The position numbers and the translations under genes are program-made. From positions 60,854 through 124,853 of IMG/VR virus record IMGVR_UViG_3300020437_000004: a stretch of 64,000 nt of DNA. One strand, 5' to 3'. The notes under the pieces were generated by a model. The model saw only the letters and a list, made by a program, of their open reading frames with translations, did no database searches and was not told the DNA's origin. Position 1 is the first letter of the stretch, and the number at the start of each line of letters is the position of its first letter. This DNA comes from a virus. Shown one piece after another: positions 3,820 through 61,945 of this stretch.

Positions 3820-3827
3820 TTATTTAT
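3820..3827 (-). promoter_or_regulatory. T4-type late promoter TATAAATA
   Basis: Exact gp55 consensus, directly after the psbA-region terminator. Confidence 0.65.
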
Positions 3828-14331: not shown

Positions 14332-16620
14332 TTATACATTACAAGCGTCACAATCTGCCTCATCACCAGACAGAATTTCATTTACTAGGTCTTCTACTTT
14401 AGCAGAAGTATCGTCTTCATCTTTCTTATTATCGTATGTGTTTTGATAGTATGATGTTTTCCATCCATATTTGTATGTCGTAAGCAAGTCGTTTGCCATT
14501 ACTGACATAGGGACATCACTATTCGCATAATTTTGTGGATTGTATGACCAGTTACCACTGATCGCTTGGTCAAAGAACTTTTGCATGACCGCAACAACCT
14601 TGATATATCCCTCATTGGATGGCATATCCCACAAGAGAGTGTAGTTATTTTTTAGTGTGTTGTATTGCGGAACAATCTGCTTAAGAGGTCCTTTCTTCGA
14701 TTTCTTAATGGACAGGTAGTCGCGAGGTGGTTCGATTCCATTTGTTGCATTTGACACAACGGAACTGCTCTCCGATGGCATCTGTGCGGACAGAGTGCTG
14801 TGTCTGAGTCCGAACCTGAGGATGTCATCCCGTAAAGAATTCCAATCATGTTGATACTCTGGTGCGACGATGTTATCTACGTCCTTCTTATATGTATCGA
14901 TCGGAAGAATTCCATCATGATACTTTGTGACTGAGAAATTACCACAAGGTCCTCTCTCTTTTGACAGAGTATTTGATGCTCTCAACAGGTAGTATTGGAA
15001 TGACTCTGTAAGTTTATGGACAAGATCATATGCCTCTTGTGAGTCATAACTTGCACCATTCTTAGCAAGGTAATGTGCTAGTCCAATGTAACCAATACCT
15101 AGTGAGCGACGTGCGATAGTAGAATCTTCTGCTGCCTTAACAGGATACTCTTGATAGTCAATCAACTCCTCAAGACCACGGACTGCAAGGTCACATAGAT
15201 TCTCCAACTCCTCTACTCTATTGATCTTACCTACGTTGATAGCAGACAAGATACACAATGCAATCTCACCCTGTCCTTGGATAGATTGAATAGGATCTGT
15301 AGGTAGAGTGATCTCTTGACACAAGTTACTCATATTCACTTTGTCTTTGAAAGATGAATGAGAGTTACAGTGATCGATATTCATAATGTAAATACGACCT
15401 GTCTCTGATCTCTCTTTCAATAGAGAAAGAATTATCTCCTGTGCGGAGACAACAGTCTTAGGGATGGTTTCGTCGGATTCGTATCTGGTGTAAAGATCGT
15501 CAAAGCTATCAGTGCCAAAGGCATCATAAAGACCAGGCACGTCATGAGGACTGAATAGACTGATCGTTGCATCTTGAATAAACCTCTTATAAAATAACTC
15601 AGAAATTTGAATGCTGTAGTCTAGTTTACGGACACGATTATCCTCTGTCCCTTTATTATTTTTTAAGACAAGGATGTCTTCTATTTCTTGGTGCCAAATG
15701 GGGAAGTGGACAGTCGCTGATCCACCACGGATGCCATTTTGAGTGCAACATCTGACAGTGCTTTCAAACTTTTTGAGGAACGGGACAACACCTGTGTGCT
15801 GCACTTCACCCCCACGGATTTTGCTGTTGATGCCACGGATTCTGCCTGCGTTAATCCCGATTCCAGCCCTTTGAGCAACGTAGTAACCAATAGCCATGTC
15901 ACTGCTAAAGATGCTATCGAGGGTGTCATCAATATCAACAAGAACACAGCTAGCAAATTGCCTAAGGGGAGTCCGCACACCTCCCATGATAGGGGTGGGG
16001 ATGTTGATTTTGTGCCTTGAGATTGCGTCGTAGTATTTTTTGACATAGGTTAGTCTGCTATCAAGAGGATAGCGTTGAAAAAGTGTAGCAGCGATCATGA
16101 TATACATCTGCTGTGGTGTTTCATACACCTCACCAGAGGATCGATCTTGTACGAGATATTTATCAACTACTTGTCGAATACCTGCATATGTGAACAAATA
16201 GTCTCGATCATAGTCAACCATGTTGTTGATTTCGCTCCACTCCTCTTCGCTATAAGCGTCTAGAAGGGCAGGGTCATACAGTCCATGATCAATACAGTCT
16301 TTGATGTGCTGATACAAATGTGGATGTGAGTCTGGATGGTTGTCATAGACTGCTTTCCTAAGAGAAAACAGGAGCAAACGTGCTGCGACAAACTGATAGT
16401 TTGGTGCGTCCAGAGAAATCAAATCGTTTGCAGACTTGATAAGAATCTCTTGGATGTCATTAGTTTTGATGCCGTCAAAAAATTGAATGTTAGCATTCAT
16501 TTCGATGGCAGACTCGGAGACTCCTCCGATGCCTTCACATGCCATCTCGACCATCTTATGAATTTTTTCTAAGTTAAGTGACTCAACACTGCCATTACGC
16601 TTGACGACGTTGGTGCTCAT
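14332..16620 (-). CDS. nrdA: Ribonucleotide reductase class Ia alpha subunit
   Basis: ATP cone, QFASCVL, SNLCQEI, ALCILSA, TSYYQNT, C-terminal CDAC. Confidence 0.98.
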   Translation of the reverse strand: MSTNVVKRNGSVESLNLEKIHKMVEMACEGIGGVSESAIEMNANIQFFDGIKTNDIQEILIKSANDLISLDAPNYQFVAARLLLFSLRKAVYDNHPDSHPHLYQHIKDCIDHGLYDPALLDAYSEEEWSEINNMVDYDRDYLFTYAGIRQVVDKYLVQDRSSGEVYETPQQMYIMIAATLFQRYPLDSRLTYVKKYYDAISRHKINIPTPIMGGVRTPLRQFASCVLVDIDDTLDSIFSSDMAIGYYVAQRAGIGINAGRIRGINSKIRGGEVQHTGVVPFLKKFESTVRCCTQNGIRGGSATVHFPIWHQEIEDILVLKNNKGTEDNRVRKLDYSIQISELFYKRFIQDATISLFSPHDVPGLYDAFGTDSFDDLYTRYESDETIPKTVVSAQEIILSLLKERSETGRIYIMNIDHCNSHSSFKDKVNMSNLCQEITLPTDPIQSIQGQGEIALCILSAINVGKINRVEELENLCDLAVRGLEELIDYQEYPVKAAEDSTIARRSLGIGYIGLAHYLAKNGASYDSQEAYDLVHKLTESFQYYLLRASNTLSKERGPCGNFSVTKYHDGILPIDTYKKDVDNIVAPEYQHDWNSLRDDILRFGLRHSTLSAQMPSESSSVVSNATNGIEPPRDYLSIKKSKKGPLKQIVPQYNTLKNNYTLLWDMPSNEGYIKVVAVMQKFFDQAISGNWSYNPQNYANSDVPMSVMANDLLTTYKYGWKTSYYQNTYDNKKDEDDTSAKVEDLVNEILSGDEADCDACNV

Positions 16621-17594
16621 ACCTTTTTCCAGAATGTTAGTTTTACTTTTGCTTCGGCACCCTTAAAGGTGTTACGTTTTACGATCTCTTTAACGTCATG
16701 ACCTGCTAGGTGCATGTCATTGAGATCTTTTTCTTTAATTGTTTTAGGGAATATCACTACAGGATATCCTTTATCAATAGTATTACTTATTTTATCAACG
16801 ATCTCCTTGTTTCGTGGTTCGTTGTCGAAGACGAATACAAATTGATAATCGAAAGTGCTGTAGTCAACATCACTACCACACATAGCAATAGCATTTCCAA
16901 GGAAATAACTGTCGAATGGTCCTTCTGTGACATATACAATCTCATCTTTGTTGATACGATCTAGTCCAAAGAGTTTAGTCTTATCTTTGTTGAAGATACA
17001 TGTGATATATCTTAGCACACTTTTAGGTGCTAGAGACCTACCTTGTATTCCAAACCAGTTACCATCCACATCGATGAGTGGGATGATGATTCTTGGTTGG
17101 TCATTCTTCAAACTCTCAAAGTAGTTTGGACTTTGTTTGTTGACCCATGCTTTAAACTTGTCAACATAATACAGAGAATAGAATGCCTCTGCAGGTAGTT
17201 GCCTCTTTGTTAAATACTCTCTTGCGGGATGCTCATTATTTAGACTAGCAATCGATTCCAGACCTGTTGGCTTACTAGCAAAGTAAGGCTTTGCTGACAG
17301 GTCAGGTAGCACGTCTTTCTTCTTAGGTTTCTTATACTTTTCTAAGAGATATTCTGAGTATAAGTCTGATGCCTGATCCTTTAAGAAGGTAGAAAGAGAC
17401 TTAGAGATACCACAGTTGTGACATTTATAAACGTAATCGTTATTGCGGACAAAAAAATACCCCCTCGCTTTACTCTTATAGCGTTGGGAGTCACCACAAT
17501 AGGGACACCTAAAGTTGTAGGTGCGTCCTTGATGTTTGAATTTTTCTAACCTGACACCAACACGATCAATGTATTGGGTATCAATGTAACTCAT
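16617..17594 (-). CDS. gp61: DNA primase gp61
   Basis: CPYCGDS..CHNCG zinc finger; VTEGPFDS and FDNE..KDLND TOPRIM motifs. Confidence 0.96.
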   Translation of the reverse strand: MSYIDTQYIDRVGVRLEKFKHQGRTYNFRCPYCGDSQRYKSKARGYFFVRNNDYVYKCHNCGISKSLSTFLKDQASDLYSEYLLEKYKKPKKKDVLPDLSAKPYFASKPTGLESIASLNNEHPAREYLTKRQLPAEAFYSLYYVDKFKAWVNKQSPNYFESLKNDQPRIIIPLIDVDGNWFGIQGRSLAPKSVLRYITCIFNKDKTKLFGLDRINKDEIVYVTEGPFDSYFLGNAIAMCGSDVDYSTFDYQFVFVFDNEPRNKEIVDKISNTIDKGYPVVIFPKTIKEKDLNDMHLAGHDVKEIVKRNTFKGAEAKVKLTFWKKV

Positions 17595-17983
17595 TCAAGT
17601 CGGTGCATCTCTCCGACCATCATACTGGATTGTTGCTCAGGTGTCAACACGTTACCTAAAATTTTCTGGCCTGCAGGAGACACTACGAAAGAAATTACTG
17701 TGAGGGCACCTGCGATAGTCCACATTTTCTTCTCCATCATACGGAGTCTGTCGTCTACCAGACGGATGTCTCTCTCACATCCTTTCTTGATAGCATCTGT
17801 CTCTCTAGTAATATCTGCGTGGATTCTGTCAACCTTTTCAAACAAAACCTGATCGATCTTGTCTTGCTTGTCCAGTTTTTCATTGTGTACAGCAAGAAGT
17901 TGACCCATCTTTACAGAATTTTCCTGTAATGTGTCAACTACTCTTTCTAATCTTTCTAATATTGCAGAATTAATGTCAGACAT
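17591..17983 (-). CDS. Coiled-coil protein with C-terminal TM segment
   Basis: Heptad-rich N-terminus, then MWTIAGALTVISFVV. Confidence 0.75.
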   Translation of the reverse strand: MSDINSAILERLERVVDTLQENSVKMGQLLAVHNEKLDKQDKIDQVLFEKVDRIHADITRETDAIKKGCERDIRLVDDRLRMMEKKMWTIAGALTVISFVVSPAGQKILGNVLTPEQQSSMMVGEMHRLE

Positions 17984-18378
17984 TATACGCCTAGTGCTTT
18001 TTGTCTCTTGTCCCAGTAGAATTTGATTACTTGATTAGGGTATAGTCGTGTGATTTTAATCTTGTTATGCACCTCAGGTCTGTAGATCTTTCTGAGTTGT
18101 ATCTTTATTTCTGACGGTGACTTACCGTACAAAACATATGAATCGATTCCATCGAAATGAATAAGGTAAGGGATGATGCTGCTATCTTTTTGATAGTGAC
18201 TTGCTTCTTCTCCTATTCCTACGTTAGTTACAACGTGTCCTTTGGGTTTATACTTTCTCTTCTTGACTTTCTTTCCCCCTAGCATGGGGTCATACCCTGC
18301 AACAGGACCACTAGCAGCAGCAGATCCAGAGAATCCACCGTTGCCTGCACTCATTGTTGGGGCATCTTCATTAATCAT
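17983..18378 (-). CDS. Small protein with a gp23-like N-arm
   Basis: Residues 4-33 are 22/30 identical to gp23 residues 52-81, without gaps. Confidence 0.8.
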   Translation of the reverse strand: MINEDAPTMSAGNGGFSGSAAASGPVAGYDPMLGGKKVKKRKYKPKGHVVTNVGIGEEASHYQKDSSIIPYLIHFDGIDSYVLYGKSPSEIKIQLRKIYRPEVHNKIKITRLYPNQVIKFYWDKRQKALGV

Positions 18379-18748
18379 TGATTGACGTCAAGGTATCGTA
18401 TACATCCATATCAATATCCACATCGTTAAATGAGCCTGCATTGATTTCTGGATACCTATCTAAAAATATTAGAAAGGTTTTAAGTATAGACCAATACTCA
18501 CGCTCAAGCTTATACATTAGCAACGGTATGGTTGCCTCACCAAACACATTGAATAGTATAACCAGATGGTTGATTATTAAGTTTGTACGTAATGTCCCAG
18601 TCTTTAAGTATCTTTTAAGCAGTCGCTTAAGATATTTGAATTTCTTCATGTCTTCCATGAAGTCATCCACGGTAACCGATTGCGGATTACTATAGTGTTT
18701 GATTGCAAACAGCAAGTGATTCTTATCGGTTAAACTTTCAAAACGCAT
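18371..18748 (-). CDS. Conserved T4-like hypothetical protein
   Basis: FAIKHYSNP...DMKKFKYLKRLL...RLIINHL-type pattern; ATAAATA upstream. Confidence 0.8.
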   Translation of the reverse strand: MRFESLTDKNHLLFAIKHYSNPQSVTVDDFMEDMKKFKYLKRLLKRYLKTGTLRTNLIINHLVILFNVFGEATIPLLMYKLEREYWSILKTFLIFLDRYPEINAGSFNDVDIDMDVYDTLTSIND

Positions 18749-18778
18749 TACGAATCAGGATTTTCCTGATTTTATTTA

Positions 18779-19624
18779 TCAGCTTCCGAATGTAAGAGTT
18801 GCGGATCCGTTAGTGATAACTTCTTCAGCACCCTTAGAGGTGTTAACAACACATCTATATTTCTGTCCGTCCAACGCATTGCTTGAAAGTCCACTATATG
18901 CAAGAGTTGCAGTGGTGAAGTTTGCGTATGTAATACCTGTGTCTGTGTTGGCAGCGATGTCAACCCATCTAACAGTAGCACTTGCAGTCTGTCTCTGCCA
19001 CTTGTAAGTGATGGTGCCAGACTGATCAACTGTGGCAGCAACTGCGAATGTCCCTGCTCCACTAGATGAAGTAGAGTTTGCAGGTTGTGTGCCGATAGTG
19101 ATTGTTTCTTGGACGTCTGCTACCACTGTATCGTCTGCGTCATCGCCAGCCGCGGCTGCGGTAGCGTGAGTAAATGCGAGACACTCTGCCTTATGACGTG
19201 TGTCACCATTGTATGTGGTGTATGTGCGATACAACCACCAACCAGGACCAGTGATACCTCTAGACTTGTTTGCTGCTTTAGTTCTCTCAGTCTCGTCAAC
19301 AAATACGAGCTGATAGTCAGAGATGCTATCGCCACCCTTGATAACGTACTCTGCTACTGCCTTAGGAGGAGTCCTTCTAACGGCATTTGCTGCGGTGATT
19401 GTTGCAGTAGATCCTGCATACACCTTATGAAGCTCTAGAGCAGTTGCTGACGTTACTTGTTTTACAATGTAAGCGACACCAGAGATTTCCAACACGTCAC
19501 CTACTTTGACAAGGTTGTCAGAAGCGTCCGTGAAGTCTCCAGAAGTTGTTACGGTGGCATCTCCATTGGTTACACCAATGTTTGTGCCCATTGCTTTCGC
19601 ATCGAGTAGTCCAAATACAGCCAT
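18779..19624 (-). CDS. Virion structural protein with C-terminal Ig-like domain
   Basis: ITIGTQP...TYKWQ...DGQKYRCVV; TATAAATA at about 19659. Confidence 0.75.
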   Translation of the reverse strand: MAVFGLLDAKAMGTNIGVTNGDATVTTSGDFTDASDNLVKVGDVLEISGVAYIVKQVTSATALELHKVYAGSTATITAANAVRRTPPKAVAEYVIKGGDSISDYQLVFVDETERTKAANKSRGITGPGWWLYRTYTTYNGDTRHKAECLAFTHATAAAAGDDADDTVVADVQETITIGTQPANSTSSSGAGTFAVAATVDQSGTITYKWQRQTASATVRWVDIAANTDTGITYANFTTATLAYSGLSSNALDGQKYRCVVNTSKGAEEVITNGSATLTFGS

Positions 19625-19671
19625 TTTTCTCTAGTAGCGGGGTGGTATCATCTATATGTTATTTATATAAC

Positions 19672-53423: not shown

Positions 53424-54770
53424 TTACATGAGATTGTCAACAAGCACACGTCTGTAGTAACGGTTCTTGTTAGGATCAAGATCGCCATTACCTTGAGTGG
53501 TGCCTTCAGCGAATGGGTTAGCAACCATGCCGTAACGAGTCTTAAACCCGATTTTTGGCTGGAAGGTGTCCTGACCCACAGCTCTGACCATTTGTAGAGG
53601 CACATATGGACAGTAGAAGAGTCCTGCATCGTATGCAGAGGATCCTTTGTAACCTGCAACATAGAAGTGTCTGTCACTTACGTTTGCAGAGTAAGGATCA
53701 ACATAGACCTTGATTCTACCATTCAAAGTACCAGCAAGAGTGCTGCTGTTATCGTCTGGAAGAAGGTTGCTGTTGCCAGAAAGAGCAGGAGTGTAATCAA
53801 GCACACCAGCCATTGAGAGAGCACTAGCCACGTCTGCAGAGCAGATGAGGATGTTACCCTTTCCACGACGAGTTTCATGCCCGATAGCATTCATATCTCT
53901 TTCGATCTGGAAAAGAAGACCTTTGAATTTCTCAACAGACCAACGACCATTAGAGTCAACGTCTAGGTCGAAGATACCTGCAGTTGCAGTGTTGTTTTGT
54001 GCACCAGGTCTTGCGACTCTGTATACAGATCTAACAACTTCACGGTTGATTTCAGCCAAAACTTCAGTTGACAGAATGTTTGCCAACTCAGACTCAGCAT
54101 CAAGTCCGTGGACTGCCTTAAGGTCTTGAGCCAATTCAAGAGAATACTCTGCTTTGAGTGCTCTGGACTTCGCAGTCACAGTAACTTTCTCAATGCTGAA
54201 GTTCATCTCAGCGAATTGGTTGCCAGCTGCGTCACCAAGTGCTTCAGCCTCAGCAGTAGGCATACCATCAGAAACGGTATAAGTGCCACTGTCATTGAGA
54301 AGACCTGGGTTGCTTCCTGACTGAGCAGTTCTTCCAAGGTCAGACGCTGCGTTTTCTGCTGAAAACTCGGAGTCTGCTTCGTTGAAGAATGCTTCTGAAC
54401 CTGCGGTTCTGTTAGTGCCGTAGCGAGATCTCATCGCGAAGATAAGTCCAGTAGGACCAGTCATAGGTTGTACACCTGCGATGTCGTAAGCGATCAGCTT
54501 AGGCATGGATCTCCTGATTAGGGAGATGAGTACTGGGTCGAAACCTGCGACAGGACCTGTAGCTGTGCTGCTACCACTGAAACCTGCAGTACCTGCAGAC
54601 ATGGTAGGAGCGGCTTCAGTCAATACGCCAGCTTCTTCCTTGATAAATCTTTCTTGGTTCTCGAGAAGAACTGCGGTTACCGCTTTTCTATAGTTATCAC
54701 CGATCTCAGGGAGATCGCCGTGTGTAAGAATGGGTGACCACTTCTCCTGCAAGTGCTCAGAATTAAACAT
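53424..54770 (-). CDS. gp23: Major capsid protein gp23
   Basis: FDPVLISLIRR, GVQPMTGPTG, KSRALKAEY, FQPKIGFKTRY. Confidence 0.99.
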   Translation of the reverse strand: MFNSEHLQEKWSPILTHGDLPEIGDNYRKAVTAVLLENQERFIKEEAGVLTEAAPTMSAGTAGFSGSSTATGPVAGFDPVLISLIRRSMPKLIAYDIAGVQPMTGPTGLIFAMRSRYGTNRTAGSEAFFNEADSEFSAENAASDLGRTAQSGSNPGLLNDSGTYTVSDGMPTAEAEALGDAAGNQFAEMNFSIEKVTVTAKSRALKAEYSLELAQDLKAVHGLDAESELANILSTEVLAEINREVVRSVYRVARPGAQNNTATAGIFDLDVDSNGRWSVEKFKGLLFQIERDMNAIGHETRRGKGNILICSADVASALSMAGVLDYTPALSGNSNLLPDDNSSTLAGTLNGRIKVYVDPYSANVSDRHFYVAGYKGSSAYDAGLFYCPYVPLQMVRAVGQDTFQPKIGFKTRYGMVANPFAEGTTQGNGDLDPNKNRYYRRVLVDNLM

Positions 54771-54803: not shown

Positions 54804-55853
54804 TTACTTTGACCAACGGGATAGAGCCTTAACATAGGCATCCATTCCTTCATTGATTGGCTCAGGATTCGCTACTTCGTTGTCCTCGGAAGGTGCAGAT
54901 GCAGCTTCAGCAGACTTAGTAGAGAAATAAGACTCTCTTAGGGTATGGATCTTTTCCTTGTATGACTCAACATCATCAAACTCAACAGCCTCTGCGAGAG
55001 CAGACAGTTTTTCGCGTTGCGAAAGGGTCAGACCCTCGGACGCTTCATTCACAATCCCATTCTTAATATAGCCGCCAATCTCTTTGGTCAGAGAAACATT
55101 CTCTTCGATTGACTGGTTGAGTTTATCTTCCATTTGATCGAGTTGTGAGGTCATCTCATCAACAAGATCAAGTTTTTCCTCGGGAATCTCAATGTGATTC
55201 TCGACGAAAACTTTTTTGATTCCGTCTAGGACGTTTTCTGCCATCTCATTCTTGATACCATGCTCAATAGCAAGGGAATTGGTATCCATCCAGTTTTTAA
55301 CTGAGTATGAGAGGTAGTCGTCAACCTTTTCTGCAAGGTCTTTTTTGACAGATTCAATTTCTTCTTCAAGGACTTTAGCGTATTCCTCGTGCATGCGATC
55401 CAACTCTTCGTTGAGTCTAGAAACAACCGCAGCTTCAAAGATAGTCTTTGCTTTCTCTTTGAATTCTTCACTTAGGTTTTCGCCTTCAGTCAAAGCTTGC
55501 ACGTCAGCACTGAGGTCAACCTCAATGACGTTTTGCTCTGCGTCCTCTTCAGCAATTACTTCGCCTTCAGGTTCATGTCCCGCCTTGACATCACCTTTAG
55601 TGCTAAACTCTGCCTTCTGTCCACTAGCATCAGATGGTTTAGTGCTAGGAGGAGTAGCAGTAGGTCCGCCACCAGTCTTGTACTTATTAGACTCGTCGTC
55701 AGGTTTTGAATTCTGAGGAGTAGGTCCACCAAGATCCTGATAACCAGGTTGACCAGGTGTGCCAGATTCAGCTTTCGGCATTGGATCCGCAGGTTTGGCG
55801 TTTTTAGTTACTGCGTTTTCATCCAGTGTTTTTTCTTCAATTTTAGACATCAT
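54804..55853 (-). CDS. gp22: Prohead core scaffold gp22
   Basis: FKEKAKTIFEAAV, VDDYLSY, LRESYF; position before g23. Confidence 0.93.
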   Translation of the reverse strand: MMSKIEEKTLDENAVTKNAKPADPMPKAESGTPGQPGYQDLGGPTPQNSKPDDESNKYKTGGGPTATPPSTKPSDASGQKAEFSTKGDVKAGHEPEGEVIAEEDAEQNVIEVDLSADVQALTEGENLSEEFKEKAKTIFEAAVVSRLNEELDRMHEEYAKVLEEEIESVKKDLAEKVDDYLSYSVKNWMDTNSLAIEHGIKNEMAENVLDGIKKVFVENHIEIPEEKLDLVDEMTSQLDQMEDKLNQSIEENVSLTKEIGGYIKNGIVNEASEGLTLSQREKLSALAEAVEFDDVESYKEKIHTLRESYFSTKSAEAASAPSEDNEVANPEPINEGMDAYVKALSRWSK

Positions 55854-55901: not shown

Positions 55902-56549
55902 TTAGAAACTTTGAAGATACTCAGCAAACGCGGAAAGTTTCCTTTCTTCCATTTGTGAGCGTGCAGCGTTGTCGATTCTACGCTTAATTGTCTCGATGGT
56001 TTGCTCGTGAATTGCTCCACCTGCATAAACCCATTCCTTTCCTTCCATGATGCCATCTACAAAGGCATCGGGTGCGGAAGGATCGGCAACAATATCTGCT
56101 GCAGTTGCAAGCATAAAGTCATCCATGACGACTTTCATGCCATTTTCTTCCTTGATTGTCCCCAATCCTCTAGAGGAAACGCCAAGTTTTACACCTTCAT
56201 CAAGAAGATTCTTGGCAATGTTACCCATAGGAGTGTCGAGGATTCTCGCTTTTCCAATAAAGTTGTTTCCCTCATTAGTAAGGGATGTGATTAGATGTGA
56301 CACGCGGTCGAGATTAATCGTAGGACCATCAGGATGACCCAACTCTCCGAGTGCACGTCCTTTCTTAATGTATGATTCGTTATATTTATCAACCTCTCTT
56401 GCAAGAGTCTGCACAGGATACATCCTACCATTACGGTTTTTGATGGCACCTTGAAGGAACACGCCCTCAATGAAGTGACGTTTCTTTCCATCCTTGCCTT
56501 CGGTAATAGTTACCTTAGCGGATTCAATTTCCTCCCTGATCAGTTTCAT
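55902..56549 (-). CDS. gp21: Prohead protease gp21
   Basis: KNRNGRMY, GELGHP, GVSSRG, DPSAPDA. Confidence 0.97.
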   Translation of the reverse strand: MKLIREEIESAKVTITEGKDGKKRHFIEGVFLQGAIKNRNGRMYPVQTLAREVDKYNESYIKKGRALGELGHPDGPTINLDRVSHLITSLTNEGNNFIGKARILDTPMGNIAKNLLDEGVKLGVSSRGLGTIKEENGMKVVMDDFMLATAADIVADPSAPDAFVDGIMEGKEWVYAGGAIHEQTIETIKRRIDNAARSQMEERKLSAFAEYLQSF

Positions 56550-59173: not shown

Positions 59174-61945
59174 TTAGGTTGCAACCTCGGAGAAGCTAGC
59201 TCCAGTCCTTGTTGCAGTGAAGGTTAGTGTGATGAAGTTAATAGATCTAGTAGGTTTGATGAAGATCTCAGCATAAAACTCGCCTCTGTCAATAGACTCA
59301 GGTGGGTTGTTAGTGCTGTCGCAGACAACCAAGAAGTCAGTAACGCCACGACGTGACTGTACGGATCTCATGAAAGGTTCTACGATATTCTTGAAACCTT
59401 GGCGAGTAAACTCGTCATTCAATTCAAAGAGTTGTGTCTTAGCAGCTTGTGCGATCGCACCTTCCAAGACAAGGAAGAGACGTCTTACGTTGATTCTATC
59501 GAATGCAGACTGATAAGCGAGAGCGGTCTTGTCTCCGAAGAGGACGATACCTTCGCCAGGGAATGCAACGATTGGGTTAACTCTAGCAGCGTAAAGTCTA
59601 TCTCTGTGATCTTTAAGAGGAGAGTAAGCAAGTTTAACTGCGTTACGAAGTTGTCCTCTATTGAAACCTGCAGGTGAGAACCAAGGCTCCTGATTCAGAG
59701 TTGTGCTAAGTGTAAGACCTGCAACGTCTGCGTTACATGGGATGTAACGGTAAACATCGTTGTAGCGGTCATAGATGTATTTGTAGTTATTGTCAAATAC
59801 TGCGTAAGAAGAAGATGAAAGTTGATCAAAGAAACTTACAGTCTTGTCAACAATGTCTCCAACTGCAGAAACACCAACAACGTCACCTCTGTAAGGTGAG
59901 ATGAATGCCATGCAGTCTTTACGAGTGCTTGCGATATCGATAACCTTCTGTGCCTTAGCGATTGTGTCGCTGAGGTTACTCATTGAAGGTCCCATGAGGA
60001 CGTAATCTACTTCCTCAGTCTCAGCATCACTAAAGAGATCGTAACCTGCAAGTAGTGAAGGACGGTCAACAGTGAAACCATCTACACCACCTTGAAGGTG
60101 ATACTTAACGGTGCCGTTATTCTTAGTGCCGATAACAGGGATGCTGTTAGGATCAAGACCACTGATGTCGTCTCCACCATAAAGAGCATTATCCGCTTTG
60201 ATCAAGTCAAAGTCTCTGTTAGTTACGCTACCACCCCATGATCCGTCTGCTGTGCCAGAGCGGTCAAAGATGTTATTGGTCTCGTGAGATCCCCAGTAAA
60301 CATAGGAGGATTTATTCATCAAGACATCGACGTAGTAAAGTGACTCGCCTTGTGGAGACTTAGCGTCGGATGCCTTAGAAAGGTTAGTAAACTTCTCAAG
60401 CAATGAGCCAGGTGTGCCTGTCAAACCTCCGTCACCATCAAGGATGAGGACGTGCACGAGGTCTCTGTATCCACCACGGTCATCTGCCCATGCAGAAGTG
60501 CCAGGACGAGGAGCGATGTTGATCCACTTCTCGTTGTAACCATACTGTCTGCTCTCGTAGTCACTACCGATTGCAATAGCAGATACAGTAGCAGCGTTTC
60601 CGTCAGAAACAGTTTGGTTTGCTTGGAAGAGAGGAGAAGTCTTGTTAAGAGAAACTCTCAATTCTCTAGAGATAGACAAGATCTTACCAGATGTGCCAGT
60701 AGCAGATCCAGGTGATCCTGCATTGTTTGCCAACTCAGTAATAGTATCTCCAACTTCCCAGAAGTCAGATGCAGTGCTATCAATGCTTACTTCAAGTTTC
60801 TGTGTTTCCTTGTCGAAAGCAACAACGCCACCAGTGATGTTACCAGAAAGACCGTTGTAGAAGTTACCTGCTTTGAAGTTACCCACTAGAGTGCTATTCT
60901 CTTCAAGAGTAATAACAACAGTGTAGGAGTAAACCTTACCGAAGATGTTAGCAGCAGAGTAAGAGATTTCAGCACCAGATGCGAATTCCCACTCAGCAGA
61001 AGATGGTTGTGCAAGATAAAGTACTTGATCAGCACCTGCATCAGTCATTACGACTCTAATGCTGTTGCCGAATTGACCAGGAGTCTTAGATGCCCACTTC
61101 CAGTTATTAGAAGCATCCTTAACAGTTGACTCATATGCATCAAGATTCTTAATCAAAGGAGCAGTAATACCAGTAGAGGTTTGCTCGTTGATTTGAGTCT
61201 TGTTAGAAGAAACCGTTAGGAGAGTAACAGTAGATCCATCAGTGTGTGCTGCTGCAGTAGAGCTCAATGCTGAGCGAGTAACAGTAAGGTCGTTACCTGC
61301 AACACCAGTTACTTGGAGAATCTCATCGTCAATTCTAATATAGGAGTTAGTACCTGCTCCAAGAGTTGCTACAGAAGCAACAGTAAGAGTGGTATCAGCA
61401 TCAGTAAATGTAGATCCTTCGTTGATGGTAGAAGTGCTACCTGCAGTCTCGATCAAAGTGACTTGTGATCCTGCTGCGTGAGAAACCCCAGATGTCTGAA
61501 GTTGTCCACGAGTAACAACAACGTCGTTACCAGACACAGACCCAATGGTCATGATCTCTGCGTCAATCAAAAGAAGATCAGCGACATCAAAGTCAGTGGT
61601 AGACAATACTGTGAGTGTAGTGTCGTTAGCACTAAAAGTAGTATTAGTAAACTGTGCAGTGTCAATAGCATTCTTAAGTGAATTGCTCATTGCACGGACA
61701 ATCTTCATGGTGCCACCATAAAGAAGGTATTGTGCTGCACTAAACCAATACTCAAAGTTTGAATTACTTGGTCTACCGAAAATTGCGAGAAGCTCCTTCT
61801 CACTAGTTACCGAGACGATTTGCTCTACTGGTCCTTTCTCAAAACTTCCAACCATTGCTGCTACGTTATCTACGGTAGCGTTAACAACGTTAGTGAGATC
61901 TCTTTCCAGTACAACAACACCTGGTGAAAGTTGCGTTGATGCCAT
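59174..61945 (-). CDS. gp18: Tail sheath protein gp18 with duplicated inserted domain
   Basis: SPGVVVLERD, GSFEKGP, PWFSPAG, RINVRRLF, KPTRSINFI. Confidence 0.97.
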   Translation of the reverse strand: MASTQLSPGVVVLERDLTNVVNATVDNVAAMVGSFEKGPVEQIVSVTSEKELLAIFGRPSNSNFEYWFSAAQYLLYGGTMKIVRAMSNSLKNAIDTAQFTNTTFSANDTTLTVLSTTDFDVADLLLIDAEIMTIGSVSGNDVVVTRGQLQTSGVSHAAGSQVTLIETAGSTSTINEGSTFTDADTTLTVASVATLGAGTNSYIRIDDEILQVTGVAGNDLTVTRSALSSTAAAHTDGSTVTLLTVSSNKTQINEQTSTGITAPLIKNLDAYESTVKDASNNWKWASKTPGQFGNSIRVVMTDAGADQVLYLAQPSSAEWEFASGAEISYSAANIFGKVYSYTVVITLEENSTLVGNFKAGNFYNGLSGNITGGVVAFDKETQKLEVSIDSTASDFWEVGDTITELANNAGSPGSATGTSGKILSISRELRVSLNKTSPLFQANQTVSDGNAATVSAIAIGSDYESRQYGYNEKWINIAPRPGTSAWADDRGGYRDLVHVLILDGDGGLTGTPGSLLEKFTNLSKASDAKSPQGESLYYVDVLMNKSSYVYWGSHETNNIFDRSGTADGSWGGSVTNRDFDLIKADNALYGGDDISGLDPNSIPVIGTKNNGTVKYHLQGGVDGFTVDRPSLLAGYDLFSDAETEEVDYVLMGPSMSNLSDTIAKAQKVIDIASTRKDCMAFISPYRGDVVGVSAVGDIVDKTVSFFDQLSSSSYAVFDNNYKYIYDRYNDVYRYIPCNADVAGLTLSTTLNQEPWFSPAGFNRGQLRNAVKLAYSPLKDHRDRLYAARVNPIVAFPGEGIVLFGDKTALAYQSAFDRINVRRLFLVLEGAIAQAAKTQLFELNDEFTRQGFKNIVEPFMRSVQSRRGVTDFLVVCDSTNNPPESIDRGEFYAEIFIKPTRSINFITLTFTATRTGASFSEVAT
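61217..61645 (-). repeat. Two tandem ~70-aa beta repeats inside gp18
   Basis: TF..DTTLTV...IDxEI..I/V..V.GND..VTR......H..GS.VTL occurs twice. Confidence 0.75.

Follow-up and report, generated by a model that had tools for sequence, protein, structure and literature searches.

A small protein of T4-type cyanophages copies the N-fist of the major capsid protein in register with its predicted maturation cut

INTRODUCTION

Why should a small protein encoded close to a DNA primase gene begin with a near-copy of the first residues of the mature major capsid protein? The question is raised by a gene on the minus strand of a 64,000-nucleotide stretch of viral DNA (positions 60,854 to 124,853 of the IMG/VR record IMGVR_UViG_3300020437_000004; hereafter, the window), the proteins of which are ~97% identical to those of the cyanophage P-TIM40 (Kyanoviridae). 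A preliminary description of the window had proposed that this open reading frame (ORF) encodes a protein carrying a copy of part of gp23, the major capsid protein; the ORF is real, encodes 131 residues and is referred to below as the mimic gene. Here, we describe what has been copied, how the copy has been maintained across the T4-type phages and what it may be for.

RESULTS AND DISCUSSION

The copied peptide is the N-fist of gp23

BLASTP aligns residues 1-33 of the mimic protein with residues 49-81 of the gp23 encoded in the same window, without gaps and with 22 of 33 residues identical (E 2e-13 for the pair); this is the same match as the 22/30 identity over residues 4-33 reported in the preliminary description. 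The shared segment opens at the predicted gp23 cut (LTE|AAPTMSAG...) and closes where the N-arm (ISLIRR...) begins, and it is, therefore, a copy of the N-fist and not, as had been suggested, of the N-arm, the equivalent segment in T4 being residues 66-91. In T4, gp21 cuts gp23 after residue 65 (PMC9958956, PMC9546572, PMC7136217), and the N-fist, described as a 25-residue element, comprises residues 66-91 of the processed protein, gp23* (PMC9958956, PMC7136217), where it touches four subunits, two of its own capsomer and two of the neighbouring one (PMC9958956). In the unexpanded head, residues 66-105 lie inside and are disordered, and they probably contact the scaffold or core (PMC9546572); on expansion, they shift to the outer surface and help to make the Soc site (PMC9958956, PMC9546572), and disorder persists in the fists of the five portal-facing subunits (PMC9958956, PMC9546572, PMC7136217).

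The likeness to gp23 is confined to these 33 residues. The AlphaFold2 (AF2) model shows a 66-residue alpha/beta domain with a disordered N-terminus and no HK97 fold, and a Pfam search of the mimic protein found no family at E <= 0.1, Gp23 included; membership of the Gp23 family (PF07068) is rejected on both counts. The true gp23 is the sole Gp23-family gene found in the incomplete record from which the window is taken, which yielded no gp24 paralogue, and one such gene was found in each of four cyanophage genomes tested (P-TIM40, Syn9, S-RIM8 and S-PM2); as a positive control, the same search returned two matches in T4 (gp23 and gp24).

The P-TIM40 orthologue, PTIM40_191 (KP211958 162932-163324), is annotated from Met9, eight codons past the start indicated here. 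The sequence (M)INEDAPT is kept in >100 homologues, with a GTG start in some, and the ATG of the mimic gene overlaps the stop codon of the upstream gene (ATGATTAA); the real start is, therefore, Met1 (MINED...) and not Met9. The whole protein is basic (isoelectric point (pI) 9.7) and, as previously described, a lysine-rich tract and a separate C-terminal domain follow the copy, with eight Lys or Arg residues between positions 34 and 47, and a predicted local distance difference test (pLDDT) score of ~90 at residues 66-130. Residues 1-60 are predicted to be disordered in the AF2 model of the single chain, which, for a lone fist, fits the expectation for a docking peptide.

The C-terminal domain is confidently folded in the model and is without a recognisable relative of known fold. 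Using the AF2 model, Foldseek found nothing in the PDB at E <= 0.001 for this domain and only family members in BFVD, and the best match in a wide VIA-align search (Z 5.2, to small alpha/beta proteins of the RNA polymerase epsilon and ribosomal LX types) is at background level. The GIY-YIG proteins I-TevI and UvrC appear only among such background rows (Foldseek E 0.7-2.9; VIA Z 3.8, rank 31), the candidate catalytic positions (the Tyr/Tyr/Arg/His/Glu/Asn set) vary across the family, and there is no Pfam match.

The peptide is conserved and the codons are not

Across the 29 codons of the fist, the mimic gene and the gp23 gene share only 53 of 87 bases (61%) and, where the residue is identical (n=21), the same codon is used at 8/21 positions and the third base is equal at 10/21. 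A recent duplication is thereby ruled out, and the synonymous divergence noted in the preliminary description is borne out; across 21 genomes, third-position identity at shared residues lies between 0.17 and 0.65. The peptide itself is the best-conserved segment of the family: the column entropy across 44 diverse homologues is 0.31 bits for the copy, 0.74 for the C-terminal domain, 1.00 for the basic tract and 1.88 for the linker. The copied peptide is under strong purifying selection, as had been surmised.

These observations bear directly on the proposal that the likeness is a by-product of recombination or gene conversion, in which the copied peptide has no function and only the C-terminal domain does. 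T4-like phages recombine actively, and S-RIM8 offers a possible micro-conversion patch, as the first seven codons of its fist are identical to gp23 at 19/21 nucleotides and include five identical synonymous codons. Nevertheless, no part of the protein is better conserved than the fist, the synonymous sites of which are randomised in all 21 genomes; moreover, the register with a cleavage site or with the N-terminus is held throughout, and the C-terminal domain is missing from most of the cluster representatives described below. The conservation pattern largely refutes this explanation, which we regard as highly improbable. Recent gene conversion was also rejected as the source of the likeness, given the randomised synonymous sites in the 21 genomes save for the seven-codon patch of S-RIM8.

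The copy keeps the register of the maturation cut

In 17 of the 21 phage genomes, a hydrophobic-x-Glu site is aligned to the gp23 cut (variants include MINE|D, MNE|D, MIKE|D, VNE|S, MKE|E and MNE|E), and the remaining four proteins start directly at the fist, as in S-RIM8, where the mimic opens M-TIATAGTGGFSGS and gp23* opens TLATAGTGGFGAG. A profile search over 1.84 billion cluster representatives yielded 99 mimic proteins: [LIVMF]-x-E lies at most 14 residues ahead of the fist core in 73, near-variants of the site are present in six, and the remaining 20 begin with the fist itself. The pro-piece varies in length from four residues to whole domains of several hundred residues, and the fused metagenome forms P0154, P0188, P0198 and P0257 open with MK[TS][YF]..F. 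In all relatives, the fist is followed by a K/R-rich tail (the 25 residues after the fist include, on average, 8.2 Lys or Arg in the 99 representatives), and 61/99 representatives consist of the fist and basic tail with no further domain.

The cut at INE|D by a gp21-type protease that the preliminary description put forward is, given the site frequencies above and the Peptidase_S77 gene in the window, plausible; the cleavage itself is a prediction from sequence. A second candidate site lies in the linker, where [LIVM]xE occurs in 50/77 unique linkers against 18.4 +/- 3.5 in shuffles, and where the residues differ while the pattern stays (GIGE, LGE, LQE, LKE, VKE, VAE). As the linker sequences are related to each other, this enrichment is suggestive and is not proof.

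The family is widespread, has a member detected in virions and is widely mislabelled

The mimic protein is a full-length match to phrog_696 (E 8.9e-51 over residues 2-129), as are, at E 1e-83 to 1e-133, the proteins of S-RIM8 and ACG-2014d, Syn9 gp190 and P-SSM7_198. The family was found in 203 cyanophage records by tblastn, and a metagenome protein search gave 225 relatives; the gene order DUF7207, mimic, DUF7201, gp61 primase is conserved in relatives. Sullivan 2010 numbered this cluster T4-GC426: the S-SM1 protein SSM1_197 is annotated as 'T4-LIKE GC: 426', and BLASTP aligns it with the window protein without gaps (43/121 residues identical, 36%; E 6e-24). Table S8 of that study (PMC3037559) lists T4-GC426, with 17 peptide fragments, among the proteins detected in purified S-SM1 virions, and the earlier suggestion of a virion component is, therefore, likely to be right. 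The searchable text of PMC3037559 makes no mention of a resemblance of T4-GC426 to gp23, and our literature searches on gp190 of Syn9, and on gp61.1 (see below) with a capsid-targeting sequence (CTS), found nothing relevant.

Members of phrog_696 are called 'major head protein' in RefSeq and PHROG, including those in NC_008296 (gp190), NC_015282 (SSM1_197), NC_020855, NC_031944, NC_047733, NC_019444 and others, and the annotation of S-MbCM6_178 even equates it with T4-GC131 (gp23). The true gp23 is phrog_138, and its match to phrog_696 spans gp23 residues 52-81 only; the label is, therefore, an annotation artefact of a shared peptide of ~30 residues.

The mimic tracks the gp23 of its own lineage

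Co-variation with the cognate gp23 was the test proposed in the preliminary description. In 21 mimic/gp23 pairs, the identity between the mimic and the gp23 fist is 0.647 for cognate and 0.544 for non-cognate combinations (permutation p 5e-5). Since the permutation test ignores the relatedness of the genomes, the states were also mapped on a tree of the gp23 core. The long form (APTMSAG...) is ancestral for both proteins, and the two lost the APTMS-type first residues on the same branch, which leads to a well-supported clade of 12 genomes. Within this clade, five positions distinguish the mimics of type b (MMTTGFTGGD) from those of type c (MMTAGTGGFSGSA), and four of the five changes are to the residue of type-B gp23 (TLQTTGYTGGD). 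Individual genomes illustrate the correspondence: QTTGYTG is common to the mimic and gp23 in P-SSM3/4, and T(I/L)ATAGTGGF...ADA..PNAG is common to both in S-RIM8. The gp23/mimic type pairs in the clade are B/b in six genomes, B/c in four and C/c in two; this categorical association is too weak to count alone.

The same tracking is seen at greater distance. Mimics are 46% identical to the gp23 fist of their own family in Straboviridae and 55% in Kyanoviridae, against 20-21% to that of the other family, and the mimics of the two families are 23% identical to each other. Thus, the mimic follows its own gp23 from one cyanophage clade to the next and from the cyanophages to the T4-type phages; the proposed co-variation holds at the level of clade and family and is imperfect within the youngest clades.

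T4 gene 61.1 has the same architecture

The Straboviridae mimics come from five genomes (T4, RB49, KP27, Acinetobacter phage Tonic and Aeromonas phage 65.2) searched with the T4 gp23 fist, each of which contains a match in addition to gp23 itself (genome-wise E 1e-4 to 3e-6). In T4, the second match is gene 61.1, annotated as a 54-residue 'hypothetical protein' (phrog_1823) and located directly upstream of the primase gene 61. In its product, MKTFKEFIKE|DMVAGDSGGNPENISIGTTSGAVVNKGPEQ-IPKKKKEESKEKEE, a leader and a cut site precede a copy of the N-fist of T4 itself, and the protein ends in a basic tail. The leader matches the CTS of IPII and IPIII (MKTYQEFIAE), and the pattern MKT(Y/F)xEFIxE occurs in the T4 genome in the ipII, ipIII and 61.1 ORFs only. 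Positions 4 and 7 of the CTS serve targeting and positions 8 and 10 processing (PMC9026906); these four residues are Phe, Phe, Ile and Glu in gp61.1 and Tyr, Phe, Ile and Glu in IPIII. In the other four genomes, the fist module is sometimes C-terminal in a protein of ~150 residues (phrog_2086). It lies directly upstream of the primase gene (phrog_47) in RB49, Tonic and 65.2, as in T4, and KP27 has one 91-residue ORF between the module and its phrog_47 primase gene. In the cyanophage P-SSM2 (NC_006883), a syntenic 215-residue ORF (phrog_3286), upstream of the DUF7201 and primase genes, has a CTS-like start (MKTFKQFQE), a degenerate fist and K-rich tract at its end, and no C-terminal domain.

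Direct profile similarity between the cyanophage mimic and gp61.1 is not significant (hhalign E 0.059 over seven columns), and the window protein matches neither phrog_1823 nor phrog_2086 in a profile search; on sequence, therefore, the window protein was not assigned to the gp61.1 family, and we infer common descent from architecture and synteny only.

In the T4 region NC_000866 17000-21000, gene 61.1 adjoins 61.2, which matches the Pfam family AdfA (anti-DarT factor A; PF23813), as well as sp and dmd. This run of counter-defence genes, just upstream of the primase gene, speaks for an anti-defence decoy, in which a free copy of the capsid N-terminus would saturate or mislead a host sensor of new or processed capsid protein, and might be carried in the head and injected with the DNA. 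Major capsid proteins are sensed by a number of abortive-infection systems, the trigger of T4 Lit is the Gol peptide of gp23 (residues 93-122, just downstream of the fist), and packaged T4 proteins such as IPI* are anti-restriction factors. The copy, however, ends before the Gol-equivalent region, keeps the register of the protease site and carries head-targeting features. Moreover, the module has kept its place next to the primase gene in phages of unrelated hosts, from coliphages to the cyanophages of the sea, which is not typical of fast-turnover anti-defence genes, and the late-promoter context described below suits a structural role. We consider a decoy function improbable.

Genomic context and late-promoter motifs

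The features of the window discussed here are collected in Table 1. The 8-nucleotide overlap between the DUF7207 and mimic genes suggests translational coupling. On the other side, the DUF7201 gene is conserved between the mimic and primase genes in cyanophages; the C-terminus of its product is hydrophobic (…MWTIAGALTVISFVVSPAGQKILGNVL), possibly as a membrane anchor. The cluster opens with a phrog_613 'head protein' gene, the family of which (T4-GC537) was detected in S-PM2 virions (PMC3037559, Table S8); the nearby cytidylyltransferase family T4-GC190 is also among the proteins detected in virions by proteomics. By eye, the C-terminal half of the phrog_613 protein looks Ig-like, and it might be a decoration protein. 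Elsewhere, the window encodes a portal, the gp21-type protease and a gp22-type scaffold, the acidity of which makes it a possible partner of the basic tract.

Table 1. Positions in the window of the mimic gene, its parts and the related features (position 1 is the first nucleotide of the window)
Feature	Position	Strand	Remarks
N-fist-mimic protein gene, 131 residues	17983..18378	-	phrog_696; orthologue of PTIM40_191, Syn9 gp190, SSM1_197 / T4-GC426
Pro-piece MINE, 4 residues	18367..18378	-	Predicted prohead-protease site I-N-E|D at its end; cleavage predicted
N-fist mimic, residues 5-33	18280..18366	-	DAPTMSAGNGGFSGSAAASGPVAGYDPML; copies gp23 residues 53-81
Basic tract, residues 34-47	18238..18279	-	8 K/R; pI 10.8
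Variable linker, residues 48-65	18184..18237	-	
Second candidate protease site I55-G56-E57|E58	18208-18216	-	In linker; cleavage predicted
C-terminal alpha/beta domain, residues 66-131	17986..18183	-	beta-beta-alpha-alpha-beta-alpha; pI 9.9
DUF7201 gene	17591..17983	-	Coiled coil; T4-GC201; between mimic and primase genes
gp61 DNA primase gene	16617..17594	-	Conserved syntenic landmark, common to the T4 gene 61.1 locus
DUF7207 gene	18371..18748	-	T4-GC198; upstream, its end overlaps the mimic start by 8 nucleotides
Late-promoter-like motif GATAAATA	18773..18780	-	25 nucleotides upstream of the DUF7207 gene
'Head protein' gene, 281 residues	18779..19624	-	phrog_613 / T4-GC537; opens the co-directional cluster
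T4-type late-promoter motif TATAAATA	19660..19667	-	Perfect motif; 36 nucleotides upstream of the phrog_613 head-protein gene
gp23 major capsid protein gene	53424..54770	-	phrog_138; Pfam Gp23
Original segment, gp23 residues 53-81	54528..54614	-	First residues of mature gp23*; N-fist equivalent
gp23 maturation site L50-T51-E52	54615-54623	-	Just before the original segment
gp22-type acidic scaffold gene	54804..55853	-	T4_CASP; pI 4.4
gp21-type prohead protease gene	55902..56549	-	Peptidase_S77; presumed cutter of hydrophobic-x-Glu sites

The T4-type late-promoter motif TATAAATA occurs seven times in the window (2.9 expected; 0/100 shuffles reached seven), at 3821, 19660, 19893, 22974, 52493, 55892 and 56797, and all seven are on the minus, that is, the coding strand, as are all 17 ATAAATA motifs. 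The four TATAAATA motifs that were checked (19660, 19893, 55892 and 56797) lie 24-39 nucleotides upstream of gene starts, one of them 39 nucleotides before the start of gp22. Together, the TATAAATA and ATAAATA positions provide a candidate late-promoter map of the window. In other phages, TATAAATA precedes the mimic-gene cluster in 14 further loci, and, in place of GATAAATA, AATAAATA is found 70-77 nucleotides upstream of the mimic gene in 12/14 genomes of the S-SSM6b-to-Syn9 clade. It is on these promoter motifs that we would base late expression of the mimic gene. Between the stop codon of the head-protein gene and the start of the DUF7207 gene, there is an inverted repeat, AATCAGG-AAAA-TCCTGATT (~18755-18773, minus strand), that overlaps the GATAAATA region and could be a terminator or an RNA hairpin.

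A proposed role in the head

We think it probable, with some reserve, that the window protein is a minor head or internal protein that is processed by the prohead protease and docks by N-fist mimicry, both the docking site and the cleavage being predictions. A role as cargo tether, vertex protein or protease decoy, as put forward in the preliminary description, would be hypothetical. The late-expressed protein would enter the assembling prohead, where the gp21-type protease would strip the four-residue pro-piece at INE|D, as for gp23 at LTE|A, to leave a trimmed N-terminus in the same register as that of gp23*. The fist copy would then take a site that normally receives the N-fist or N-terminal region of gp23, whether this is provided by adjacent gp23 subunits or by the acidic gp22 core; vacant gp23 sockets close to the portal or the vertices, the inner surface of the shell and the core itself are all candidates. 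The basic tract would contact DNA or the acidic scaffold, and the 66-residue C-terminal domain would be carried along, or released inside through a second cut at GIGE|E.

A number of points weigh against this assignment. The first concern the virion data: Syn9 gp190 is annotated yet undetected in Syn9 virions, and the published virion data on the family cover S-SM1 and Syn9 only; furthermore, spectral counts do not give a copy number. Second, the family is dispensable in some phages. T4-GC426 is listed as absent from S-PM2 (PMC3037559, Table S8), which our search confirmed, P-SSM2 carries just a degenerate short form, and the S-WAM1 copy keeps INEDAPT while the remainder of its fist is degenerate (…NSVGTGAETALPPSHEPPGITRL), which may reflect decay of the mimic in one lineage; an accessory role is, therefore, to be expected. 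Third, tracking is imperfect at a fine scale: in four genomes, the mimic is of type c and the gp23 of type B, and the five T4-type phages, compared among themselves, show no excess of own-genome identity. Additionally, many of the N-terminal sites have Met rather than Leu or Ile at P3, and T4 gene 61.1 is set among anti-defence genes. Finally, if gp23 itself fills every N-fist socket, then the place where the mimic binds comes into question.

The non-detection of gp190 in Syn9 virions would fit a transient role, in which the protein modulates assembly or maturation: the processed fist would compete for a time with the N-terminal region of gp23 for its prohead-stage partner (the gp22 core or the inner shell surface) or for the N-fist sockets, would thereby time shell-core release or expansion, and would mostly leave or be degraded. 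The T4 gp23 segment that is internal before expansion and is thought to contact the core is also one in which mutations (A66D, A94V and G97S) alter head length (PMC9546572); the strongly acidic gp22 would suit the basic tract; and the minimal conserved module, in the 61/99 representatives without a further domain, is just fist and basic tail. Conversely, the 17 peptide fragments from S-SM1 virions argue for stable incorporation, at least in that phage, and both the conserved folded C-terminal domain and the coiled-coil extensions found in most of the S-SSM6b-to-Syn9 clade exceed what a competitor peptide needs. We regard modulation as unlikely, if less so than a decoy function.

Returning to the docking of a processed minor head protein, a broader proposal can be made only tentatively: the free N-terminus, fist copy and basic tail may constitute an ancient docking tag found across the T4-type phages, which is trimmed, fills sockets that gp23 cannot (for example, around the portal) or holds DNA or cargo to the shell, and has been kept matched, throughout the history of the group, to the capsid protein of its own phage. 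We found no description of capsid-lattice patching or cargo tethering by self-mimicry in the literature that we consulted.

The localisation of T4 proteins to the core or the shell has been called still 'mysterious' (PMC9958956). A conserved small protein that copies the mature capsid N-terminus in register with the maturation cut, from T4 to the abundant cyanophages of the ocean, suggests, as a concrete hypothesis, a minor head component or a docking tag that is new, and ties the idea of such a function for gp61.1 to existing experimental data on a virion protein of S-SM1. The analysis also corrects the widespread 'major head protein' mislabel, by which capsid genes are overcounted in the genomes of cyanophages and in metagenomes. 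A tag that works in the way proposed could serve to load or display proteins on T4-type capsids.

Comparison with known systems

The closest counterpart in architecture is T4 gp61.1, which shares with the window protein a copy of the gp23 N-fist, a preceding hydrophobic-x-Glu site, a K-rich tail and a location near the primase gene, although the DUF7201 gene intervenes in cyanophages. The two differ in that gp61.1 has a 10-residue leader of the IPII/IPIII CTS type and no further domain, whereas the window protein has a four-residue pro-piece and a folded domain of 66 residues. Within phrog_696, the T4-GC426 members SSM1_197, Syn9 gp190 and P-SSM7_198 occupy the same genomic position as the window gene, but they have a direct MTMMSAG-type or an MKEE/MNEE-type start and a C-terminal Q/K-rich coiled-coil extension, neither of which is seen in the window protein. 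With gp23 itself (phrog_138, PF07068), the likeness amounts to the ~29 residues of the N-fist, the mimic having no HK97 fold.

The T4 internal proteins (IPs) and Alt are CTS-bearing prohead core proteins that are processed by gp21, retained in the head and injected (PMC9026906, PMC9958956). IPI, IPII, IPIII and Alt are mostly small and basic, have a pro-piece that ends in hydrophobic-x-Glu and are present in virions; the window protein is likewise basic, has such a site and has an orthologue in virions. It starts MINED and does not contain the MKT(Y/F)xEFIxE CTS. Moreover, its candidate targeting or docking element would stay on the protein after the predicted cut and copies the phage's capsid protein, a feature not known in the IPs.

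Other short elements that dock on HK97-fold shells include the cargo-loading peptides of encapsulins and the tails of scaffolds or delta domains. Although none of these reproduces a terminus of the shell protein, and none is related in sequence to the mimic, they share with it the proposed principle, namely, a short disordered peptide that attaches a passenger to an HK97-fold shell.

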